Origin: Nostocaceae cyanobacterium
GTDB taxonomy: Bacteria; Cyanobacteriota; Cyanobacteriia; Cyanobacteriales; Nostocaceae
Direction of reading: 5' to 3'
NCBI GenBank assembly: GCA_035285345.1
Contig: JAYKJH010000239.1
Span: 4,840-68,839 of the forward strand
DNA length: 64,000 nucleotides
Shown here: positions 23,565 to 32,991 of the stretch, piece by piece
How the letters are laid out: each line of letters starts with the position of its first letter
Numbering within the stretch: position 1 is the first letter of the stretch
Position numbers and translations under genes: made by a program
The notes under the pieces: generated by a model
What the model saw: the letters and a program-made list of their open reading frames with translations, nothing else
What the model was told of the DNA's origin: nothing
Database searches by the model: none

Positions 23565-24332
23565 ATGAGTCAAAAAGATTTTTGCTTTTGCACTCTAGCT
23601 CTGGGTAGCAAATACCGTTTTTTTGTTAAACAATTAGCCCAAGATTTAGAAGTTTATTCTCCGGGGACAATGCTGGTGGTGTATACGGATGTTCCGGAAG
23701 ATTTAAAGAGTCAGGGGAATATTTTGGCGGTGAAGCATCAGCAAGAGGGGATTTTGCTTTGTTATCATGACAAACGGTTGCCGATAGCTAGGGCTTTGTC
23801 TGAGTTTCGGGTGGCGATTTTTCTGGATGCTGATATGAGAATTATCGCTCCTGTACCTGATAATATTAATTGGATTCCGGGGATTACTGCAGGGCATCAA
23901 GAGAATTTGTTGGAGCATATCGAGAAATATACTCCAGAGAAGTTAGTTTGTACTCGGAAGTTGGCGCCGAAGTTAAAGCTAGATTTGGCGAGTACTAAAT
24001 ATATTGGCGAATGTATATTTATTGTGACTAGAGACGGGGGAACAGAGAAAGAGTTTATTCAAGAGTGGGGGAAGATTGGGCGTTATTTTGAGCTAAATAA
24101 GCATCATTCTGGTGAAGGTACTGTGATGGGTTTAGCTGCTGCAAAGGTGGGTTGGGATGTGCATCGAGAAGGTTGGGAAGCTATTAGAAATGTGACTCAT
24201 CATTTGGGTGGTGCTTCTGTTCAGAATATCTCAACTTCTTGGGATAATTTTAAGATGAGGATGGGTTATCATTGGCGCTTGAATAAGGGAAGATTGCTGG
24301 CGTTGCAAGATTTTGATTTTTATTATCGATAA
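23565..24332 (+). CDS. Putative DxD nucleotide-sugar transferase (uncharacterised family, paralog 1)
   Basis: FCFCTLALGSKYRFF...YHDKRLPIARAL...IFLDADMRII. It is clearly homologous to the minus-strand gene 24673..25539. Confidence 0.5.
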   Translation: MSQKDFCFCTLALGSKYRFFVKQLAQDLEVYSPGTMLVVYTDVPEDLKSQGNILAVKHQQEGILLCYHDKRLPIARALSEFRVAIFLDADMRIIAPVPDNINWIPGITAGHQENLLEHIEKYTPEKLVCTRKLAPKLKLDLASTKYIGECIFIVTRDGGTEKEFIQEWGKIGRYFELNKHHSGEGTVMGLAAAKVGWDVHREGWEAIRNVTHHLGGASVQNISTSWDNFKMRMGYHWRLNKGRLLALQDFDFYYR

Positions 24333-24364
24333 GTTGGAGATTTCCCAATGCTCGGCGGACGTTT

Positions 24365-24520
24365 GTGGGGAAAGATGTGACTATCAACGCTAGCGCTAGA
24401 GGTAATGGCGATGGTGGCAGGGTTGAAACCACAGGACGATTGATTCTTCAAGATTCACAAGTAAGGGCTGCAACTCTTGCTTCTGGTAATGCTGGTAATG
24501 TCACAGTGATAGCTTGCGAT
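24365..24520 (+). pseudogene. Filamentous-hemagglutinin-like repeat fragment
   Basis: GKDVTINASARGNGDGGRVETTGRLILQDSQVRAATLASGNAGNVTVIA resembles beta-helical FhaB/TPS repeat units. It is isolated, has no N- or C-terminal context, and runs into dispersed repeats. Confidence 0.35.
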
Positions 24521-24672
24521 CGCTCCTCCTTGTACTGTGTCAAGCGCCAAGAAATAAGCTCCAAAATTCTTTTGCGCCTTCTTCTTAGCGCCTTTGCGAC
24601 GCCAGTTGCTTCAACGGGGGTTCCCCCCGCAACGCACTGGCTCGCCTTTGCGCGAAACAAAAATATTCCCCT

Positions 24673-25539
24673 TCACCGACGAAATACCGCGACTACCCTT
24701 AACCGCAATAAATAATAGAAAAACCTAACCTCCTTACCTAACTTACCCACCACCTTTTCCCAAAAAGAAAGCTGAGGATATTCCAGCATTCCCTGCTGCT
24801 GAAAATATATCGCCATATCCTCCATCTTCGACTGACCATTTTTGATTCTAATTAACTCCGTTTTGTCCTTAAAAAAATCTATCCCCTTCATCTCACACCA
24901 TCTTACTGACAAACCAACCTTTACCGCTGCTAAAGCAATAGCATTCCCTTCCGCATCATAAACCCCATTTAATTCAAAATAAGGAGCAATCATATCCCAC
25001 TGCTTGAGAAACTCTAATTCTTTCCCACCATCTTTAGTCACCGAAAACAAATACTCGTAAACAAAAGGAATACTTTCATGTTCCACTGCTAAACCCAACA
25101 TTTGAGCTGCCTTTTGACTCACTTGAAATTCCCGACAAACTCTAGCGCTAGCACTACCCTCCAGAACTTTCGCATACTTTTTCGACATCACTTCACAACC
25201 CCTAGCTGAAATACCTGGTTGTTGAATCCATTGCATATCTTGCGGTACTGACCCCAAAATTCGCATATCCGCATCCAAGAATATACAAGCATTAAACAAC
25301 TCTAAAGCCTTAGCGAACGCAAATCTTTTATCGTGATAACCCTTCACACTTTGCTGACGATGTTTAAAGCTAATAACATTCGACTGTTCGCTAAATTCTT
25401 GCGGTTCATCAGATAAAACTAGAAAAGAAGTGTAAGGCGCATATTTCTCAATATCTTTTGCTAATAACAATGCCAAAGCGCGATATTTCTTTCCAAACGC
25501 TAAAGTGCAGAAACAAAATCCTGGTCTCTCTGAAATCAT
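24673..25539 (-). CDS. Putative DxD nucleotide-sugar transferase (paralog 2)
   Basis: FCFCTLAFGKKYRAL...YHDKRFAFAKAL...IFLDADMRIL. The start MISERPG is preferred, because the 18-codon upstream extension in the ORF track lies in a dispersed repeat. Confidence 0.55.
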   Translation of the reverse strand: MISERPGFCFCTLAFGKKYRALALLLAKDIEKYAPYTSFLVLSDEPQEFSEQSNVISFKHRQQSVKGYHDKRFAFAKALELFNACIFLDADMRILGSVPQDMQWIQQPGISARGCEVMSKKYAKVLEGSASARVCREFQVSQKAAQMLGLAVEHESIPFVYEYLFSVTKDGGKELEFLKQWDMIAPYFELNGVYDAEGNAIALAAVKVGLSVRWCEMKGIDFFKDKTELIRIKNGQSKMEDMAIYFQQQGMLEYPQLSFWEKVVGKLGKEVRFFYYLLRLRVVAVFRR

Positions 25540-25621
25540 ATTTGTGCCTTTGCGCCTTTGCGCGAAAAAAAAATAACTGCTCGTCACCAACAACGAGCAG
25601 TTATTTTAAATCCTCAAATTA

Positions 25622-25999
25622 CTAACTCATAGAATCCAAATCAAGAGCTTGAAAACCTTGACGTTCAGCATAAGCTAACATGCTACCTAATTGCTTCCAA
25701 ACCAACAAACCAGTTAGGAGTGTCATTGGTATCCCCACAGCATAGGCTAGCAAAGTGGGAAAGCCAAAAATTTCCAACCCAGAACCAAGAAACAGACAAA
25801 CACCGCCACTAATACCGATAAATGGCACGAAAATGCTGTTAATCGACAAGCTACTAGTTTCGGAAGTTTGGGCACCATTTTTTTGCCATTTCCGCACAAT
25901 TAATTTCAGCGTAGAGGCAAATGCTGCACCAGAGGTTAATGCTGCCAAAAGCCCAACTACAAGCAGGACATAGGGCGGACTAAAGGAATAGTAATACAT
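25622..25999 (-). CDS. Small integral membrane protein (3-4 TM)
   Basis: 125 aa and strongly hydrophobic. I recognise no family. Confidence 0.5.
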   Translation of the reverse strand: MYYYSFSPPYVLLVVGLLAALTSGAAFASTLKLIVRKWQKNGAQTSETSSLSINSIFVPFIGISGGVCLFLGSGLEIFGFPTLLAYAVGIPMTLLTGLLVWKQLGSMLAYAERQGFQALDLDSMS

Positions 26000-26267
26000 G
26001 AATAACTCCTGATAATGACTGGGGGAAAGTTATCAAGACACTCCTAGGAAGTATCTCTATCACTGTCTCACAAAAAACCGATTGCGGTTAGCAAACCTAG
26101 ATGTTATGTTTCCCTGTCCTACTCAAACACCAGATTCTCCAGATTTATAATCTTAATTAATCTAATTCAGTAAAAATATAAGCTATTACGATTTACAAAT
26201 TGATAAACTCCGCAATATTTGCTTAACATCAAAAAAATAATTGACAGCATTCTCAATTATCCACGTA

Positions 26268-26296
26268 TTTACAAGCCTTTGCCGATGTAGTATAAT
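26268..26296 (+). promoter_or_regulatory. Near-consensus sigma70-type promoter with no downstream ORF
   Basis: TTTACA (26268..26273), then N17, then TATAAT (26291..26296). A second TTGACA lies at 26241. Downstream are about 240 nt of AT-rich, ORF-free sequence before the IS element. Confidence 0.4.
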
Positions 26297-26581
26297 TTTT
26301 CATAATACTGGCGACGTATGTAGCTTAATAAAAAAACCTTTAATATCGCTTAATAATTGCTTGAATGCACAAAACACAAAAAATTCAACGTATTACACCT
26401 GCAACTTTTTAGTTTATTTTCACGGGTTTATCAACTAAATATCGTTAATTTTTATAAATCAATTATCTAAAGAATTACTAAAAAAGCCATTTATACCTTG
26501 ACATAAAGATAATGATGTGATGTTAGATATATTTTGGAAATTAACCACAGATGATTTATCTGTGTTTTAGCTCTTAGACGG

Positions 26582-26619
26582 GAAGCCCCGCGCTCTACCC
26601 GATAGGGTGAGCGTCGGGA
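26582..26619 (+). repeat. Left-end subterminal hairpin
   Basis: GAAGCCCCGCGCTCTACCCGATAGGGTGAGCGTCGGGA forms a stem of about 14 bp with 2 bulges and a GATA loop. It has the same architecture as the right-end hairpin. Confidence 0.7.
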
Positions 26620-26695
26620 TGAGAGGCGCGTGAGTCGAGGTACGTTGCCTGACCAATGCGAAGCGAGGGAAGGCAACAGTGCCTAGACGAACACA

Positions 26696-26836
26696 CTATC
26701 TATCGGCTCCAGGCAGAGAGCTTATGTAGAAGCGAATGACCTCTGCCATGCTCAACCCCTTTTTGTCTGCATAAGCTTTTAACTTATCCCATTCTTCATC
26801 GGTGACTCGGATATTTAATCGCTTTTCCCTTGCCAT
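26696..26836 (-). CDS. Ribbon-helix-helix (CopG/MobC-N-like) small protein, 46 aa
   Basis: Manual translation gives MAREKRLNIRVTDEEWDKLKAYADKKGLSMAEVIRFYISSLPGADR, with the classic RHH beta-strand (RLNIRVT) plus two helices. It is below the ORF-track length cutoff. It is divergent from tnpB and inside the element. Confidence 0.6.
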   Translation of the reverse strand: MAREKRLNIRVTDEEWDKLKAYADKKGLSMAEVIRFYISSLPGADR

Positions 26837-26920
26837 CGTGATGCCATTTGGTAGTACGATAAGAGTGTAAATCATCTGGATTGTTATGGCTAGATTGTGC
26901 CCATTGTCGGAGCGGAACTA

Positions 26921-28219
26921 ATGCCAGTTGCCTACCAGTACCGCCTACTGCCAACTTCTGAGCAACGTGCTGAAATGTCGCGGTGGCTTGATATGTTGCG
27001 ATTGCAATATAACTGGATGTTGGCAGAGCGGTTTCAATGGTGGGAAGAAAATCGCTCGTCTGTGAATGCTTGCCCATTGGTTTGTCATCTGCCAGAACTG
27101 AAAGATCAGCCCGACTACTACAGCCAGAAACGCTCCCTAGTGCCACTGAAGCAAGATAGACCCTGGTACAAAGACATTCACTCTCAGGTGCTTCAGGATA
27201 TGGTGAAGCGGGTCAAACTAGCATTTGACCGCTATCTTGGCGGCGATGGTAACGGCAACCGGAGTGGAAAGCCTCGCTTCAAAAGGAAGAACCGCTACCG
27301 CTCGTTCACCTATCCTCAAGCTTCAATCGACTGGATTGATGGCAACAAAATTGAGCTACCCAAGCTTGGGACATTCAAGGTGATTTGGCATCGTCCACTG
27401 CCTGAAGGCTTTAACGTCAAAACCGCCATCATTACTCACAAAGCGGACGGTTGGTATATCACGCTAACCCTAGAAGATGTTTCAGTTCCCGAATTCACAT
27501 CAGATATTGAGCCGACAGCAGGCAATTCCATCGGGATTGATCTCGGAGTTGAAAAGTTCCTGGCTGACTCAGAAGGGGAATTCGAGCGAATTCCTCAGCA
27601 CTTCAGAAAGTCAGAACAAAAGCTTGCACGATTGCAGCAAAAAGTATCGACTGCCAAGAAAGGGAGTCGCGCTTCGTCGCTGCTAGTTCGCAAGGTTGGC
27701 AAATTGCATCAAAAGATTGCACGACAACGCAAACAGTTTCACTACGAAACAGCGCAAAAGGTTCTCAAGAAAGCCGATGTGGTGTTTGTTGAGGATCTGA
27801 GGGTGAAGAATATGTCCAGACGTGCCAAGCCCAAGCAAGATGAAACAGGTAAGTTTCTCCCCAATGGTCATGCGGCTAAGTCTGGGCTGAACAAGAGTAT
27901 TGCCGATGCAGGCTGGAGTCAGTTCATTGACATCCTTGCTTTCAAAGCTGAAAAAGCTGGTTCGCGAGTAGTCAAAGTAAACCCCAAAGGAACCTCGCAG
28001 CATTGCTCAAACTGCCTGAATCGTGTCCCTAAAGAGTTGTCTGACCGATGGCATTCTTGCCCACATTGCGGTACAGAACTCGACCGGGATACAAATGCGG
28101 CAATTTTAATCAAAAAAGTAGGGTTGGACATCGCCTTACTCAAAAACGCTCAACCAGCTATGCGCGGAGCGCAGGCTTTGCCAACGGCTCGGAAGAGAAG
28201 CCCGCGCTGTACCGCCTAA
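26921..28219 (+). CDS. tnpB: RNA-guided endonuclease TnpB (OrfB_IS605/OrfB_Zn_ribbon)
   Basis: MPVAYQYRLLPTSEQ... The RuvC triad is intact (GIDLGVEKF, VFVEDL, RDTNAAILI) and the zinc ribbon is CSNC...CPHCG. The ATG at 26921 is preferred over the ORF-track start at 26897. Confidence 0.9.
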   Translation: MPVAYQYRLLPTSEQRAEMSRWLDMLRLQYNWMLAERFQWWEENRSSVNACPLVCHLPELKDQPDYYSQKRSLVPLKQDRPWYKDIHSQVLQDMVKRVKLAFDRYLGGDGNGNRSGKPRFKRKNRYRSFTYPQASIDWIDGNKIELPKLGTFKVIWHRPLPEGFNVKTAIITHKADGWYITLTLEDVSVPEFTSDIEPTAGNSIGIDLGVEKFLADSEGEFERIPQHFRKSEQKLARLQQKVSTAKKGSRASSLLVRKVGKLHQKIARQRKQFHYETAQKVLKKADVVFVEDLRVKNMSRRAKPKQDETGKFLPNGHAAKSGLNKSIADAGWSQFIDILAFKAEKAGSRVVKVNPKGTSQHCSNCLNRVPKELSDRWHSCPHCGTELDRDTNAAILIKKVGLDIALLKNAQPAMRGAQALPTARKRSPRCTA

Positions 28220-28245
28220 GCGGTCAGCGTCGGGAGTATGTCACA
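28090..28245 (+). ncRNA. Predicted omega/right-end RNA scaffold overlapping the tnpB 3' end (approximate limits)
   Basis: In characterised TnpB elements the guide RNA scaffold spans the 3' end of tnpB to the RE boundary. The structured RE hairpin at 28197..28235 fits this. The boundaries were not determined. Confidence 0.4.
28197..28235 (+). repeat. Right-end subterminal hairpin
   Basis: GAAGCCCGCGCTGTACCGCCTAAGCGGTCAGCGTCGGGA has the same bulged stem as the LE copy. It shows compensatory changes (C:G to G:C in the outer stem, inner stem ACCC/GGGT to ACCGC/GCGGT). Confidence 0.7.
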
Positions 28246-28271
28246 ACTGGTCATCTGTGGTTAATTACTAC

Positions 28272-29984
28272 TCAACGCTGACCACCAAACAGGGGGATAG
28301 ATGGAGCTTTCGGTAAGATAGCTGCTGTGCCCTCTCTGGATAACTCAGTTAAAACACCAATCGCAACGTTAAACAAGCGAGTCGGTTGTAAGTCATCCTT
28401 AACTAAGTTCCATAACCGCTGGACTTCTGCGGTGTGCAGGCGATCGTCTTCGGTGAGGGCGAGTAACAACTGACGGCGGAGAAACTTACCTTCATCCGAG
28501 AGAATAAATTGCAAGCCTAGTTGTGCTGTCGGCAGTAAATCAAAGCTACCATCAGTACGAGCAATGGAAATCAAATTTTCCAACCGCTGCCACTGAAATT
28601 TCCCATTTTTAAACAAGATATTCAGTAACCGTCGCCGCAGTTCAGCAGATTCTCCTGTCAACAGACGCCGTGCAACGTAGGGATAAGCTACCTCGATGAT
28701 TTTAAAATTGGGGTTGAGGCTCAGAGCTATACCTTCCTGGGTTACCAAGGAACGAATAATCAACGCGAATTTTGCTGGGACCCGGAAGGGGTAGTCATAC
28801 ATCAGTTTCGAGTATTCATCGGTGATGGTTTTGAAGTTAAAATCGCCGACGTTCTTACCAATTGCGTTCCCCCACACGGCTTCTAGGGCGGGGACGATGG
28901 GACGAATATCTATTTCTGGTGTTAAAAAACCTAGCTTCACGTAGTCTTCAGCTAAGTCATCATAGTCTTTGTTCACCAGATGTACTACCGCATCCACCAA
29001 GGTTTCTTTCGTCAGTTGATCCAACTGATCCATCATCCCAAAATCAATATAAGCCATCCGACCATCCGGCATGGCGAATAGGTTTCCAGGGTGGGGGTCA
29101 GCGTGGAAAAATCCATGTTCTAATAGCTGCTGCAACCCGGAGGTAACGCCAATTTGGATAATTGCTTCTGGGTCTAAACCGGCAGCGCGAATGCTTTGCG
29201 TATCAGTCAGCTTCCAGCCGTTAATCCACTCTAGAGTTAAGATGCGGCGGCTGCTATAGTTCCAGTAAATTGCTGGTACTTTAACGCGGGGGTCGTTCCG
29301 GAAGTTGTTAGCAAATTTCTCGGCGTTGCGACCTTCGTTGATATAGTCAATTTCCTCAAATAACTTCGTGCCAAACTCGTCCACAATTAAGCTGAGGTCG
29401 TGTCCCAAGTTTAGTGGTAGCCAGGGTGCTAACCAACCCGCTGCCCAACGCATCAAATACAAGTCTAGGGTAATTACAGGACGTAAGTTAGGACGTTGCA
29501 CCTTCAGTGCTACTTCTTCTCCACTTACCAGTCTACCCCGGTATACTTGTCCCAAACTCGCCGCCGCTACCGGATGGGATGACAGTTCACTAAAAACTTC
29601 CGTCAGGGGTCGGTTGAGGTCGGCTTCAATAATCTTCAGCGCGATCGCGTTATCGAAGGGCGGTAACTGGTCTTGTAGCTTGATCAGTTCTTCTAAGAAA
29701 TCTTGGCGTACTAAGTCCGGTCGCGTTGACAAGGCTTGACCAACTTTAATAAATGTCGGACCCAAGCGGGTGAGAATTTCCCGCAATTGAGCAGCCCGCT
29801 TTAATTTATTCTCCTCTTGTTGATTTTGCCATTCATCCCACTTCAGACCCAGCAAGAATCTAGCAAAAAACCATATAATTTTCACGGCTCGTGCCACAAC
29901 TAACCAAGGACGAACGCGGTAGTAACGAGCGATCGCCTTAGCATCGTAGCGTCTATTCTCTGTGGTAAGTGTTTCGGAATTCAC
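28272..29984 (-). CDS. ABC1/UbiB-family atypical kinase
   Basis: 570 aa with AAASLGQVYRG...VALKVQRP...HADPHPGNL...IDFGM motifs. Confidence 0.9.
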   Translation of the reverse strand: MNSETLTTENRRYDAKAIARYYRVRPWLVVARAVKIIWFFARFLLGLKWDEWQNQQEENKLKRAAQLREILTRLGPTFIKVGQALSTRPDLVRQDFLEELIKLQDQLPPFDNAIALKIIEADLNRPLTEVFSELSSHPVAAASLGQVYRGRLVSGEEVALKVQRPNLRPVITLDLYLMRWAAGWLAPWLPLNLGHDLSLIVDEFGTKLFEEIDYINEGRNAEKFANNFRNDPRVKVPAIYWNYSSRRILTLEWINGWKLTDTQSIRAAGLDPEAIIQIGVTSGLQQLLEHGFFHADPHPGNLFAMPDGRMAYIDFGMMDQLDQLTKETLVDAVVHLVNKDYDDLAEDYVKLGFLTPEIDIRPIVPALEAVWGNAIGKNVGDFNFKTITDEYSKLMYDYPFRVPAKFALIIRSLVTQEGIALSLNPNFKIIEVAYPYVARRLLTGESAELRRRLLNILFKNGKFQWQRLENLISIARTDGSFDLLPTAQLGLQFILSDEGKFLRRQLLLALTEDDRLHTAEVQRLWNLVKDDLQPTRLFNVAIGVLTELSREGTAAILPKAPSIPLFGGQR

Positions 29985-30399
29985 GCCACCCTTTACCTCT
30001 TTAATTTATCAATGTGTTTTACCTTGCCACTGGGATAAGCATCTAATCTCATCCACAAACCCACCTGGCAATTTTCCTGAGAATTACCCAGGTAGTTTAG
30101 TAGCACAGGACTATCAAGAATTTCTTATCATTTCTTTAATAATAGTATATATAACTACAAATTTCCCTGATTTTTTTTGAAGTTTTAATAATTGCTTTCG
30201 TAATATTTCTCAATATAGATATTTACCCATAAAAGAAAAGCCCGTGTAAGACTTATCTCCACACGAACTATACCGAATTTATTGCAGTGACTAAGTATTA
30301 AGTATTACGAATTTATTTGGGGAATAGGGAATAGAGAAACTAATTACCCAAACCCATCCATCATCCGTGTATCCGCGATATCAGCGTGTACCCCATTCC

Positions 30400-32991
30400 C
30401 TAACCCTTCGCCTTGGCCTCCAAGTTTTCCAAACGACTCTTGAGTTCTTGGTTTTGCTTCTTGATTTGGTCGAGTTCTTCCCGCAGTTGTTTAACTGCTA
30501 GGTCGCTACCCACACTCTTTTGCACCTTAGTAATAGCTTCTTCTGCCATGCGACGCACTCGTCCGTCAGGTGTTTGGTCAGCCAAAGAGCTTAAAATACC
30601 AATCGCCTTTGGTGTTTCCATTTGCTCTAGAGCGACAACCACTGAGACTTGAGTTAAGAAGAACGTCTCTTTAGACAGGTCTTCTAAGCGTTCCAGGATA
30701 CGTTGCAAATTAGTAGCGGTTTGACCAGTGGAAATAGCTCCCAAAGCGCGAATAGAGGCTAAACGTAAGGCTTGGGGTACACCGAGTTTGGTGTATTGCA
30801 AAATCACATTCAAAGCGGCTTCTGAGGTTGTCAGTTGAGCAAGACCAGCGATCGCACCACTGCGAACCACTTCATTCCAACCAGCCTTGTTCTCCAACAC
30901 CGACTCTAACAACTTAATCACCTTTTCTTCCTTGGGTTTCTCATCTAAATTCCCCGCTGCTATTGACCCAATCGCACGATTTGCGGCTGCTTCCACGTAA
31001 TAGCTAGCATCACCATCTTCGATGATAGATTTCAGGGATTTATAGCTGTCGCGGGTTTTGATATTACCCAAGGCTGTGACTACCGACCGTCGGACTACAG
31101 GATGTTCATCTTGCAACCCAATAACTAACTGAGCAAACACTTGGTCTAGCTTGATTTCTGCTAGTTGTTTTGCTACTTCGGCGCGCACACCCCAGAAGCG
31201 TTCTGTTTGTAACGCACCAGAAAGTGCTTTCAGGGCTTCTAAACCACCTTTTTTCGCCAAAGCTTCAGCGGCTAATATCCGAGAAATCGGGTCAGGGTCA
31301 AATTCTAACTGAGCTTTCAATTCCGCTACTGGATACTCTAAACACACCGTTTTGAGATAATTATTACCCGCATCAAAACTGATAAACTGAGGCTTTTCTT
31401 CTAAGGGGAAGTAGAAACTTTGTTCCCGTTCATGAACACGAACCGAGAAGGTTTTCAGCCTTGCTGCTTCTCCTTTTTGAGTATAACCAAAGGCAATGGG
31501 AATTTTCAGGTCAAATAAATCGCTGCCGTTATTGTCTTCTTGCGCGTGGGTTTGAGTAATTGTAACTTTCCCTAGTTTGCTATCACCATCCCAAGAATAA
31601 GCGACTTTGAAATCAGGATGACCCCCACGGTAAACGTACTGGTCAAACAGGAACGTCAAGTTACGTCCGGTTGCTCGATCAATTGCCCTTAATAAATCAA
31701 TAGTTTCGACTGTTCTATGGGCATTATCGCCGACAAAGGTCTGCATTGCCCGCCAAAATAATTCATCCCCCAATTCCGCACGCATCATATGATAAACACA
31801 TGACCCTTTTTCATAGATATGGCGGTCATAGAGTTCAATAGCTTCCCGGTAGATATGAGTCACCATCGGACGACGGTAACGACCCTTATCTTCAGCCAGA
31901 TAGCTACGTATTTCCTGTAATCTATAGTATGCAGCGTCTTCTTTGCCATACTCATGTTCTGTCCACAGGACTTCCGAATAAGAAGCCATTCCTTCCTTAA
32001 CCCAAGCATGAGACCAATGTTTAATTACCAATAAATCGCCAAACCATTGGTGTGCTAGTTCATGGACTACTAAACTTTCAGTATTACGGTTATCTAATGC
32101 TGCTCTTTCATCAAGCAAACATCTATCAGTTAACAGCGTCGTGGAAGTGTTTTCCATCCCACCAAAGATAAAATCATCAACACAGACTTGGGCGTATTTT
32201 GGAAAAGCATAAGGATAACCATATTTTTCACTCAAAAACTCCATCATCTGAGGAGTTTTACCCATGCTACGCTGAGCATCGGCTTCTCTTCCTTTCTCTA
32301 CGTAGTAGGTAACAGGTTTTCCTCGCCAATCGTCGCGAATTTCCGCAAAATCACTTACTGCTAGAGTCATCAAATAAGTAGGATGAACTTCTTTCTGTAA
32401 CCAGTGGTAAATTTTATAATCACCGTCTTCTTCTGTAGAAATTAGTTCACCGTTAGAAATTGCAATTAGGGGTTTAGCGACACGGACGCGGATTTCACTA
32501 GTAGAAAGTTGTCCTGGATAATCGAAACAAGGAAACCAGAAGCGGGAATCTTCGTCTTCTCCTTGCGTCCAGACTTGGGTTGGTTTCTCAGGATAGTGTT
32601 TATCTGGTTGAATAAAGTAAATCCCCCGCTGGGGTTTTTCTACCGAGTAGGCGATCGCAATTAAAATTGTCTTGTCAACCTGGCTAGGTGAGTCCAGTTG
32701 AATAAATAATTGTTCACCGTCGTAATCAAAATTTTGCGGAATTTGATCTACTTCTATTGATTGTATATTTAGGTTAACCGCATCCAAGGTCAAACGTTCT
32801 ATGCCATTACGAACAGGTTTTAACCTGATTTTACATAGTCCCTCATAACTTTGATTAGGAATATCCAAATTCAGGCTGAGAAAAATATGCTCTACCTGTC
32901 CGGGACGATCAGGATTATAGTGGGGACGCGAACCTGGTAATTGGAAAGCTTTGTGACCGTTTTTTTCGGTTTGAAAATAAAATTGCGACAT
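30400..32991 (-). CDS. pepN: M1-family aminopeptidase N with a C-terminal HEAT-repeat/coiled-coil region
   Basis: GGMEN and HELAHQWFGD...E zinc motifs, 863 aa, with HEAT-like repeats in the C-terminal third. Confidence 0.85.
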   Translation of the reverse strand: MSQFYFQTEKNGHKAFQLPGSRPHYNPDRPGQVEHIFLSLNLDIPNQSYEGLCKIRLKPVRNGIERLTLDAVNLNIQSIEVDQIPQNFDYDGEQLFIQLDSPSQVDKTILIAIAYSVEKPQRGIYFIQPDKHYPEKPTQVWTQGEDEDSRFWFPCFDYPGQLSTSEIRVRVAKPLIAISNGELISTEEDGDYKIYHWLQKEVHPTYLMTLAVSDFAEIRDDWRGKPVTYYVEKGREADAQRSMGKTPQMMEFLSEKYGYPYAFPKYAQVCVDDFIFGGMENTSTTLLTDRCLLDERAALDNRNTESLVVHELAHQWFGDLLVIKHWSHAWVKEGMASYSEVLWTEHEYGKEDAAYYRLQEIRSYLAEDKGRYRRPMVTHIYREAIELYDRHIYEKGSCVYHMMRAELGDELFWRAMQTFVGDNAHRTVETIDLLRAIDRATGRNLTFLFDQYVYRGGHPDFKVAYSWDGDSKLGKVTITQTHAQEDNNGSDLFDLKIPIAFGYTQKGEAARLKTFSVRVHEREQSFYFPLEEKPQFISFDAGNNYLKTVCLEYPVAELKAQLEFDPDPISRILAAEALAKKGGLEALKALSGALQTERFWGVRAEVAKQLAEIKLDQVFAQLVIGLQDEHPVVRRSVVTALGNIKTRDSYKSLKSIIEDGDASYYVEAAANRAIGSIAAGNLDEKPKEEKVIKLLESVLENKAGWNEVVRSGAIAGLAQLTTSEAALNVILQYTKLGVPQALRLASIRALGAISTGQTATNLQRILERLEDLSKETFFLTQVSVVVALEQMETPKAIGILSSLADQTPDGRVRRMAEEAITKVQKSVGSDLAVKQLREELDQIKKQNQELKSRLENLEAKAKG

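Follow-up and report, generated by a model that had tools for sequence, protein, structure and literature searches.

A ribbon-helix-helix gene in the tnpA slot of a cyanobacterial tnpB-only IS200/IS605-family element and its probable role as a repressor of tnpB

The element and its ends

The window (the whole stretch of DNA analysed here, 64 kb from a Nostocaceae cyanobacterium) carries an IS200/IS605-type element of about 1.68 kb, located at about 26566..28246, in which a very small ribbon-helix-helix (RHH) gene and tnpB are arranged divergently (Table 1). DNA homology to copies found elsewhere, in Leptolyngbya, Leptodesmis and other cyanobacteria, begins at 26561-26566 and ends at 28244-28247, the flanks being unrelated; these limits therefore define the length of the element and place the RHH gene inside it.

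Table 1. Features of the element and their positions in the window
Feature	Position	Strand	Basis
LE with subterminal imperfect palindrome (hairpin 26587-26618)	26566..26620	+	Homology start; direct repeat at RE; fold
LE-internal noncoding segment with long second hairpin (core 26634-26688)	26621..26695		Conservation; folding
RHH (Arc-like) gene, 46 aa + stop	26696..26836	-	ORF; Pfam matches; AF2 model; dN/dS
Divergent control region, 49 bp; both promoters and the RHH operator presumably lie here	26837..26885		Conserved blocks
11-codon remnant ORF, MARLCPLSERN (stop)	26886..26921	+	Translation; N- and C-terminal codons match the full-length ORF
tnpB, 432 aa, RNA-guided endonuclease family	26921..28219	+	NCBIfam guided_TnpB, 289.9 bits (cut-off 100)
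RE: imperfect palindrome 28201-28234, then terminal GTATGTCAC(AA)	28201..28246	+	Direct repeat of LE palindrome

The palindromes of the two ends are related in sequence and lie in direct orientation, which is a signature of IS200/IS605 elements; the RE palindrome overlaps the tnpB stop and, among the copies, changes in the loop and stem of the LE palindrome are compensated. The other hallmarks of the family are also found: a TnpB with HTH_OrfB, OrfB_IS605 and Zn-ribbon regions, and the lack of inverted repeats at the very termini of the element. TnpB matches the Pfam domains HTH_OrfB_IS605, OrfB_IS605 and Cas12f1-like_TNB and, aligned to a solved TnpB-type nuclease, it presents GIDLG, VEDL and DRDTNAA at the RuvC D/E/D motifs together with both CxxC pairs; as judged from its sequence, the enzyme is predicted to be catalytically intact. 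Neither a Y1 transposase (Y1_Tnp) nor a second copy of the element occurs within the 64-kb window. With no Y1 transposase in the element or around it, the element is therefore non-autonomous.

The segment internal to LE, which adjoins the RHH stop codon, has a mean pairwise identity of 0.963 in eight copies, against 0.73 for RHH third positions and 0.80 for the spacer. Its fold z-scores are -5.0 on the plus strand and -4.2 on the minus strand, and it is kept at 82-83% in the tnpA-bearing Altericista elements L007-L009 (loci are given here by number). Possible functions are termination or insulation, recognition by TnpA, and production of an RNA.

Just beyond the homology limits, a perfect 16-bp inverted repeat, 26539-26554 / 28251-28266 (AATTAACCACAGATGA / TCATCTGTGGTTAATT), surrounds the element, and a terminator-like hairpin (26546-26564) abuts its left end. 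It looks as if the insertion took place at a palindromic site able to form a hairpin; the omegaRNA guide would begin with the right arm of the repeat. The left-hand flanks of nine copies did not yield a conserved TAM. An 11-nt complementarity between the flank (26548-26558) and the spacer (26868-26878) is at the level expected by chance for a 2.6-kb region. Nothing relevant came from an Rfam search of 24000-31000, and a plasmid collection gave only weak tnpB matches and no record bearing the RHH gene. Upstream of the element, the convergent ORFs 23565-24332 (+) and 24673-25593 (-) are paralogues, with FCFCTLA-G-KYR and YHDKR motifs in common.

A 46-residue protein of the RHH superfamily

The earlier note on this DNA had pointed to a minus-strand ORF between the LE hairpins and tnpB and had assigned it to the RHH fold. 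The ORF is present and its translation is MAREKRLNIRVTDEEWDKLKAYADKKGLSMAEVIRFYISSLPGADR. The search against RHH family profiles that had been called for was run, and supports the assignment: the best match is Pfam NikA-like (30.5 bits for a cut-off of 27, E 4e-7), and RHH_1 scores 20.5 bits, which is exactly its cut-off of 20.5. The profiles ParD, ParG, RelB and ORF56 match more weakly (ParD, ParG and RelB below threshold), the scores of the NCBIfam antitoxin profiles are all far under their cut-offs, and the Pfam Arc model does not match the protein.

An AF2 model, predicted as a monomer from an input of 13 sequences, consists of an extended N-terminus followed by helices at residues 13-26 and 30-40 (pLDDT 81.6). 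Foldseek places it among RHH proteins exclusively in its top PDB matches (P22 Arc, ORF56, CopG, ParG and RHH antitoxins), with E values above 0.2, as expected of a query of just 46 residues. A sequence search of the PDB with the RHH profile returned SUMO proteins, which are spurious, and otherwise just Reg576 and ParG, at E ~0.4-0.6. In the predicted beta-alpha-alpha topology, the N-terminal strand reads RLNIRVT, in which the hydrophobic residues (L, I, V) and the polar ones (R, N, R) alternate; N8, I9, R10 and V11 are invariant in the alignment of homologues. A profile match above a curated threshold and the modelled topology thus both agree with the definition of the superfamily, and on this sequence and structure-prediction basis we assign the protein to the RHH (Arc/MetJ/CopG) superfamily.

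The ORF is a selected gene

Among 5.8 billion proteins searched, 12 clusters of RHH homologues were retrieved, 65-98% identical and all cyanobacterial or metagenomic. From the contigs of these clusters, a genome scan and a metagenome scan (the last with the RHH alignment as query, yielding two loci), ten distinct DNA versions of the ORF were collected, from other cyanobacteria. Frame and length are identical in all ten, and the ATG at 26836 is kept in nine, L003 having ATC instead. Pairwise dN/dS (Nei-Gojobori) is mostly 0.01-0.17 at dS 0.5-1.8. The window and L005, for example, differ by 15.5 synonymous and 1.5 non-synonymous changes, and mean pairwise identity at codon positions 1/2/3 is 0.94/0.96/0.73. 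The RHH ORF is a protein-coding gene under strong purifying selection; the conservation and dN/dS check proposed for it has now been made and came out in its favour. This 46-codon gene was missed by gene callers, yet it is more strongly constrained than much of tnpB. A longer version of 59 residues, starting at an upstream ATG (26875), was rejected: its N-terminal extension is unconserved, being interrupted by a stop or lacking a start codon in L022 and L005.

A tnpB-family gene adjoins every one of the close homologues examined. The possibility, raised together with the original prediction, that the gene is a remnant of an antitoxin or relaxosome accessory gene captured by the element is disfavoured because purifying selection is strong and because the close homologues always stand beside a tnpB-family gene. 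Two specific identities were also rejected. A type II antitoxin (RelB/ParD/CopG) finds only LE downstream of the RHH stop, and the protein has no toxin-binding C-terminal extension; a relaxosome accessory protein (NikA/MobC) finds no relaxase in the loci examined, the neighbour being always the tnpB-family gene.

RHH and transposase genes alternate in one slot

Relatives of TnpB (38-91% identity) were gathered from 80 loci, one genome per species, and their upstream regions were searched with an iterated HMM built from RHH sequences. A divergent RHH ORF lies directly upstream of tnpB in 34 of the 80, over the whole range of TnpB identities; it is intact in 30 and decayed in four (L066, L069, L027, L024). 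The same slot holds a divergent Y1 transposase gene (Pfam Y1_Tnp, E 4e-27) at 15 loci, among them L008, L009, L013 and L016-L020, an XRE-type HTH gene at two and a MerR-family gene at one (L015). Nothing was recognised at 21, and for the remaining seven too little upstream sequence was available. RHH and tnpA occur together at none of the 51 informative loci.

In a neighbour-joining tree of TnpB, whole clades are RHH-positive throughout, including a large Nostocales clade, and the clade of the window is nested among tnpA-bearing elements, so that the RHH gene does occupy the tnpA slot. Moreover, the tnpA-type Altericista elements match the LE of the window up to 26703, at the RHH stop codon. 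The slot assignment of the earlier note is thus upheld, as is the divergent orientation of the gene, on the strand opposite to tnpB here and in the 30 intact relatives alike. Two close relatives, L015 and L020, are on contigs binned as an Aeromonas MAG (a 1.7-kb contig) and a Sphingobacterium MAG, which looks more like contamination than cross-phylum transfer.

The divergent spacer and a lost third gene

Since tnpB starts at 26921, the starts of the two genes are separated by 84 bp (26837..26920). The length of the spacer had been given correctly; what has to be revised is its nature, for true intergenic control DNA extends only over 26837..26885 and the rest is taken up by the 11-codon ORF, whose stop overlaps the tnpB start (TAATG). 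The first two codons of this ORF (M-A) and its last nine or so are those of a 101-codon gene, joined at GATTGTTATGGC-type repeats, and it is the leftover of that Cys-rich gene after a deletion between the repeats. Indeed, a full-length 101-codon ORF is found between RHH and tnpB, on the tnpB strand, in most of the window's clade (L002/L004, L022, L090-L094). The stop of this gene overlaps the tnpB ATG and its product is rich in cysteine (CPGC...C..C), as in L090 (2207-2512, minus strand). The 101-residue protein has no Pfam match, and its homologues fall into just six clusters, none with an annotation beyond hypothetical. In L003 the ORF is shortened in another way, in frame, to 33 residues, and L005 has a different ORF, encoding a 55-residue Zn-ribbon.

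The direct repeat GATTGT, thought earlier to be regulatory, does occur twice, 14 bp apart (26879-26884 and 26893-26898). A regulatory role is not sustained: the repeat is made of deletion scar plus coding sequence, its second copy falling within the 11-codon remnant, and this copy is unconserved, L002 reading GGGCTG there.

The ten copies share four conserved blocks within 26837..26885: GTGA, GGTAGTAC, GT(G)TAAA and CAT. Two -10-like hexamers can be recognised by eye, back to back: TACGAT on the plus strand at 26855-26860 (TACAAT in five relatives) and TACACT on the minus strand (reverse complement of 26866-26871). A scan of the spacer for consensus sigma-70 promoters gave no site. The operator and the promoters are presumably contained in this stretch of DNA. 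No convincing conserved dyad or tandem operator was found in it or in the spacers of other RHH clades. Two candidates, GATGnnATTT...AAAnCATC and the arms TTGCCAT/ATGGCAA, the latter overlapping the two start codons, are weak, and L005 breaks the second.

At L041-L067 and other Nostocales loci, in many clades with differing RHH types, a motif (T)AGGTCGAAAA lies ~25-30 nt upstream of tnpB and downstream of a TATAAT-like box. It is missing from the spacer of the window, and may be a common element of the tnpB 5'-UTR or transcription start.

Exchange of the regulator together with its promoter region

Comparison of individual loci reveals a modular organisation. At L006, TnpB is 90% identical to that of the window, yet both the RHH and the spacer are unrelated, and homology resumes only at codon 3 of tnpB; at L015 (TnpB 86%) the MerR-family gene occupies the slot. 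Conversely, L001 (1934-4141) carries the same LE/RHH/spacer module, with 90.5% nucleotide identity and 96% amino-acid identity for RHH, followed by three unrelated small ORFs (132/147, 64 and 70 aa) and a 380-residue TnpB that is only 27% identical to ours. By eye, L001 also has an 11-codon leader remnant, MAKHKTVEREQ (stop), which overlaps the next start codon as the remnant in the window does.

In these sequence comparisons, the regulator and its promoter region behave as one exchangeable cassette, inherited as a unit. The regulator moves with the promoter region and not with a particular TnpB, which fits a function at the level of DNA better than one based on protein-protein contact. A wider speculation, which we hold doubtful, is that the tnpA slot is a swappable, immunity-like regulatory cassette, with RHH proteins of various specificities, MerR-family or XRE regulators and their own promoters replacing the transposase in non-autonomous elements. 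By diversifying, TnpB elements that reside together would then evade one another's repressors, much as in phage immunity, and RHH could also be a host-state switch that releases TnpB and guide RNA.

A probable autoregulated repressor of tnpB

The earlier note knew of no RHH partner described for TnpB; the literature contradicts this. Zedaveinyte et al. (10.1101/2023.11.20.567912) found that IStrons contain an ORF for an Arc-like RHH protein, with homologues in the hundreds associated with TnpB, Cas12k and further mobile elements, and IS605-family elements with Arc-like RHH genes, including ones made up of arc and tnpB only, were reported in 2023. In the same year, Altae-Tran et al. (PMC10691335) presented archaeal RHH/MazE-TnpB operons as putative toxin-antitoxin pairs. 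More recently, in a preprint, Moon et al. (28 Sep 2026; 10.64898/2026.09.24.754181) used ChIP-seq to show that the Arc proteins encoded by IS605-family elements, those of arc+tnpB-only elements included, bind the intergenic bidirectional promoter, and reporter and mutational assays to show that their repression of the tnpB promoter depends on three alternate residues of the beta-strand; some of these proteins are 50 residues or shorter and unannotated.

Several features of the window recall these repressors: a small standalone RHH gene within the element boundaries, its divergence from tnpB across a short intergenic region (here 49 bp to the first plus-strand start), an element with only arc and tnpB, and alternate polar residues of the beta-strand positioned, in the model, to read DNA. 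The likeness is one of RHH fold and gene arrangement, the Pfam Arc model giving no match here. The published elements are Clostridial whereas this one is cyanobacterial. In many of the published cases arc and tnpA are both present, while in the lineage of the window RHH replaces tnpA and never co-occurs with it, and most of the clade has the third, Cys-rich gene between the promoter and tnpB.

We therefore regard the RHH of the window as a further, cyanobacterial example of the transposon-encoded Arc-like repressors already described, the class itself not being new. By analogy with them, the 46-residue protein is probably an Arc-like, autoregulated repressor of the tnpB promoter in a non-autonomous, tnpB-only IS200/IS605-family element. 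The proposal that the element encodes a repressor tuning tnpB would, on the same analogy, correspond to the role that Moon et al. (10.64898/2026.09.24.754181) demonstrated for the Arc-like RHH proteins of IS605-family elements.

The mechanism could be as follows. An RHH dimer, probably a dimer of dimers, would insert its N-terminal beta-strand into the major groove of an operator within 26837..26885, with R6, N8 and R10 facing the DNA and L7, I9 and V11 facing the core. The operator would overlap the back-to-back -10 regions, and the bound protein would reduce transcription of the tnpB operon and, with it, the amount of guide RNA, which is made from the 3' end of tnpB plus RE. The RHH gene itself would probably be repressed as well, the outcome being a negative feedback that holds nuclease and guide RNA at low levels independent of copy number.

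Other systems offer partial parallels. CvkR, like the RHH of the window, is a small transposon-encoded regulator accompanying an RNA-guided TnpB-derived protein in cyanobacteria; it is a repressor, as we suppose RHH to be, and the protein that it controls is Cas12k. The parallel extends to the MerR-family gene in the slot of the close relative L015. The two differ in fold and vehicle, CvkR being a winged HTH of a Tn7-like CAST whereas ours is an RHH of an IS200/IS605 element. CopG, P22 Arc, omega and ORF56 resemble the protein in fold and size (~45 aa) and, by analogy, in autoregulated-promoter logic; the genes under their control are those of plasmid copy number or phage lysogeny, and none is linked to a guide-RNA nuclease.

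Alternative roles

That RHH might act on the TnpB protein, as an antitoxin-like inhibitor blocking the binding of guide RNA or target by the nuclease, has precedents: such a role was proposed for archaeal RHH-TnpB pairs from cofolding models (PMC10691335), and Moon et al. (10.64898/2026.09.24.754181) mention a proposed interaction of Arc with TnpB-omegaRNA. The sub-threshold RelB and ParD antitoxin matches point the same way. The archaeal loci (PMC10691335) share with ours a small RHH gene stably linked to tnpB, but there the RHH gene is upstream in the same operon, the RuvC site is rearranged, the loci are immobile and a toxin-antitoxin role has been proposed. Here RHH is divergent from tnpB and not an upstream member of its operon, the D-E-D motifs of TnpB are canonical, and the element lies at different sites in different genera. 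Furthermore, the modelled protein ends six residues after helix 2, and so would offer no C-terminal extension for binding a toxin, and the same RHH accompanies the 27%-identical TnpB of L001 while unrelated RHHs accompany TnpBs that are 90% identical. Inhibition of the protein is thus unlikely.

The NikA-like profile being that of a relaxosome accessory, one could also imagine RHH as a DNA-architectural accessory of transposition, comparable to NikA or TraY, which would bind the ends and recruit or exclude an HUH Y1 TnpA acting in trans. An element without tnpA must indeed be mobilised in trans, and the RHH gene abuts the unusually conserved hairpin inside LE. This hairpin is equally conserved, however, in tnpA-type elements devoid of RHH; the similarity to NikA is generic to RHH proteins, the RHH_1, ParD, ParG and RelB matches being comparable; and the strict alternation of RHH with tnpA over the informative loci speaks against a joint action of the two. 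Since the homologous systems tested bind the promoter and not the ends (10.64898/2026.09.24.754181), we consider an architectural role quite improbable.

Activation, or switching, of tnpB transcription by RHH is very improbable, even if some RHH proteins, such as AlgZ/AmrZ, are activators, and even if the spacer has no strong consensus promoters and its transcription could for that reason depend on an activator. RHH genes that are divergent and autoregulated usually encode repressors, examples being CopG, Arc, omega and antitoxins. Every IS605-family Arc protein with detectable activity likewise repressed (10.64898/2026.09.24.754181).

Finally, RHH might be a mere passenger, the relic of an antitoxin or plasmid gene that was captured and serves no purpose in the element. 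This reading could draw on the profile matches to plasmid and toxin-antitoxin RHH families, on the few decayed genes in relatives and on the ATG lost in L003, but is hardly credible in the face of purifying selection over large synonymous divergence, of a position and orientation constant in the 30 intact cases across deep TnpB clades, and of loci that in no examined case contain a toxin or relaxase partner.

Significance

Repression of tnpB by RHH being the reading retained, a cyanobacterial, tnpA-less lineage would be added to the Arc-like repressors encoded by transposons, a class recognised only recently; our literature search found no description of a cyanobacterial RHH-tnpB lineage specifically. 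Beyond the published work, the comparisons bring the mutual exclusion of RHH and Y1 transposase in one slot and the exchange of regulator and promoter as a cassette, and, as a further modest addition, the loss of a third, 101-codon gene. For the engineering of TnpB nucleases and for studies of IS load in cyanobacteria, the RHH gene and its control region may, by analogy with the characterised repressors, provide a candidate native off-switch and a compact regulated promoter.
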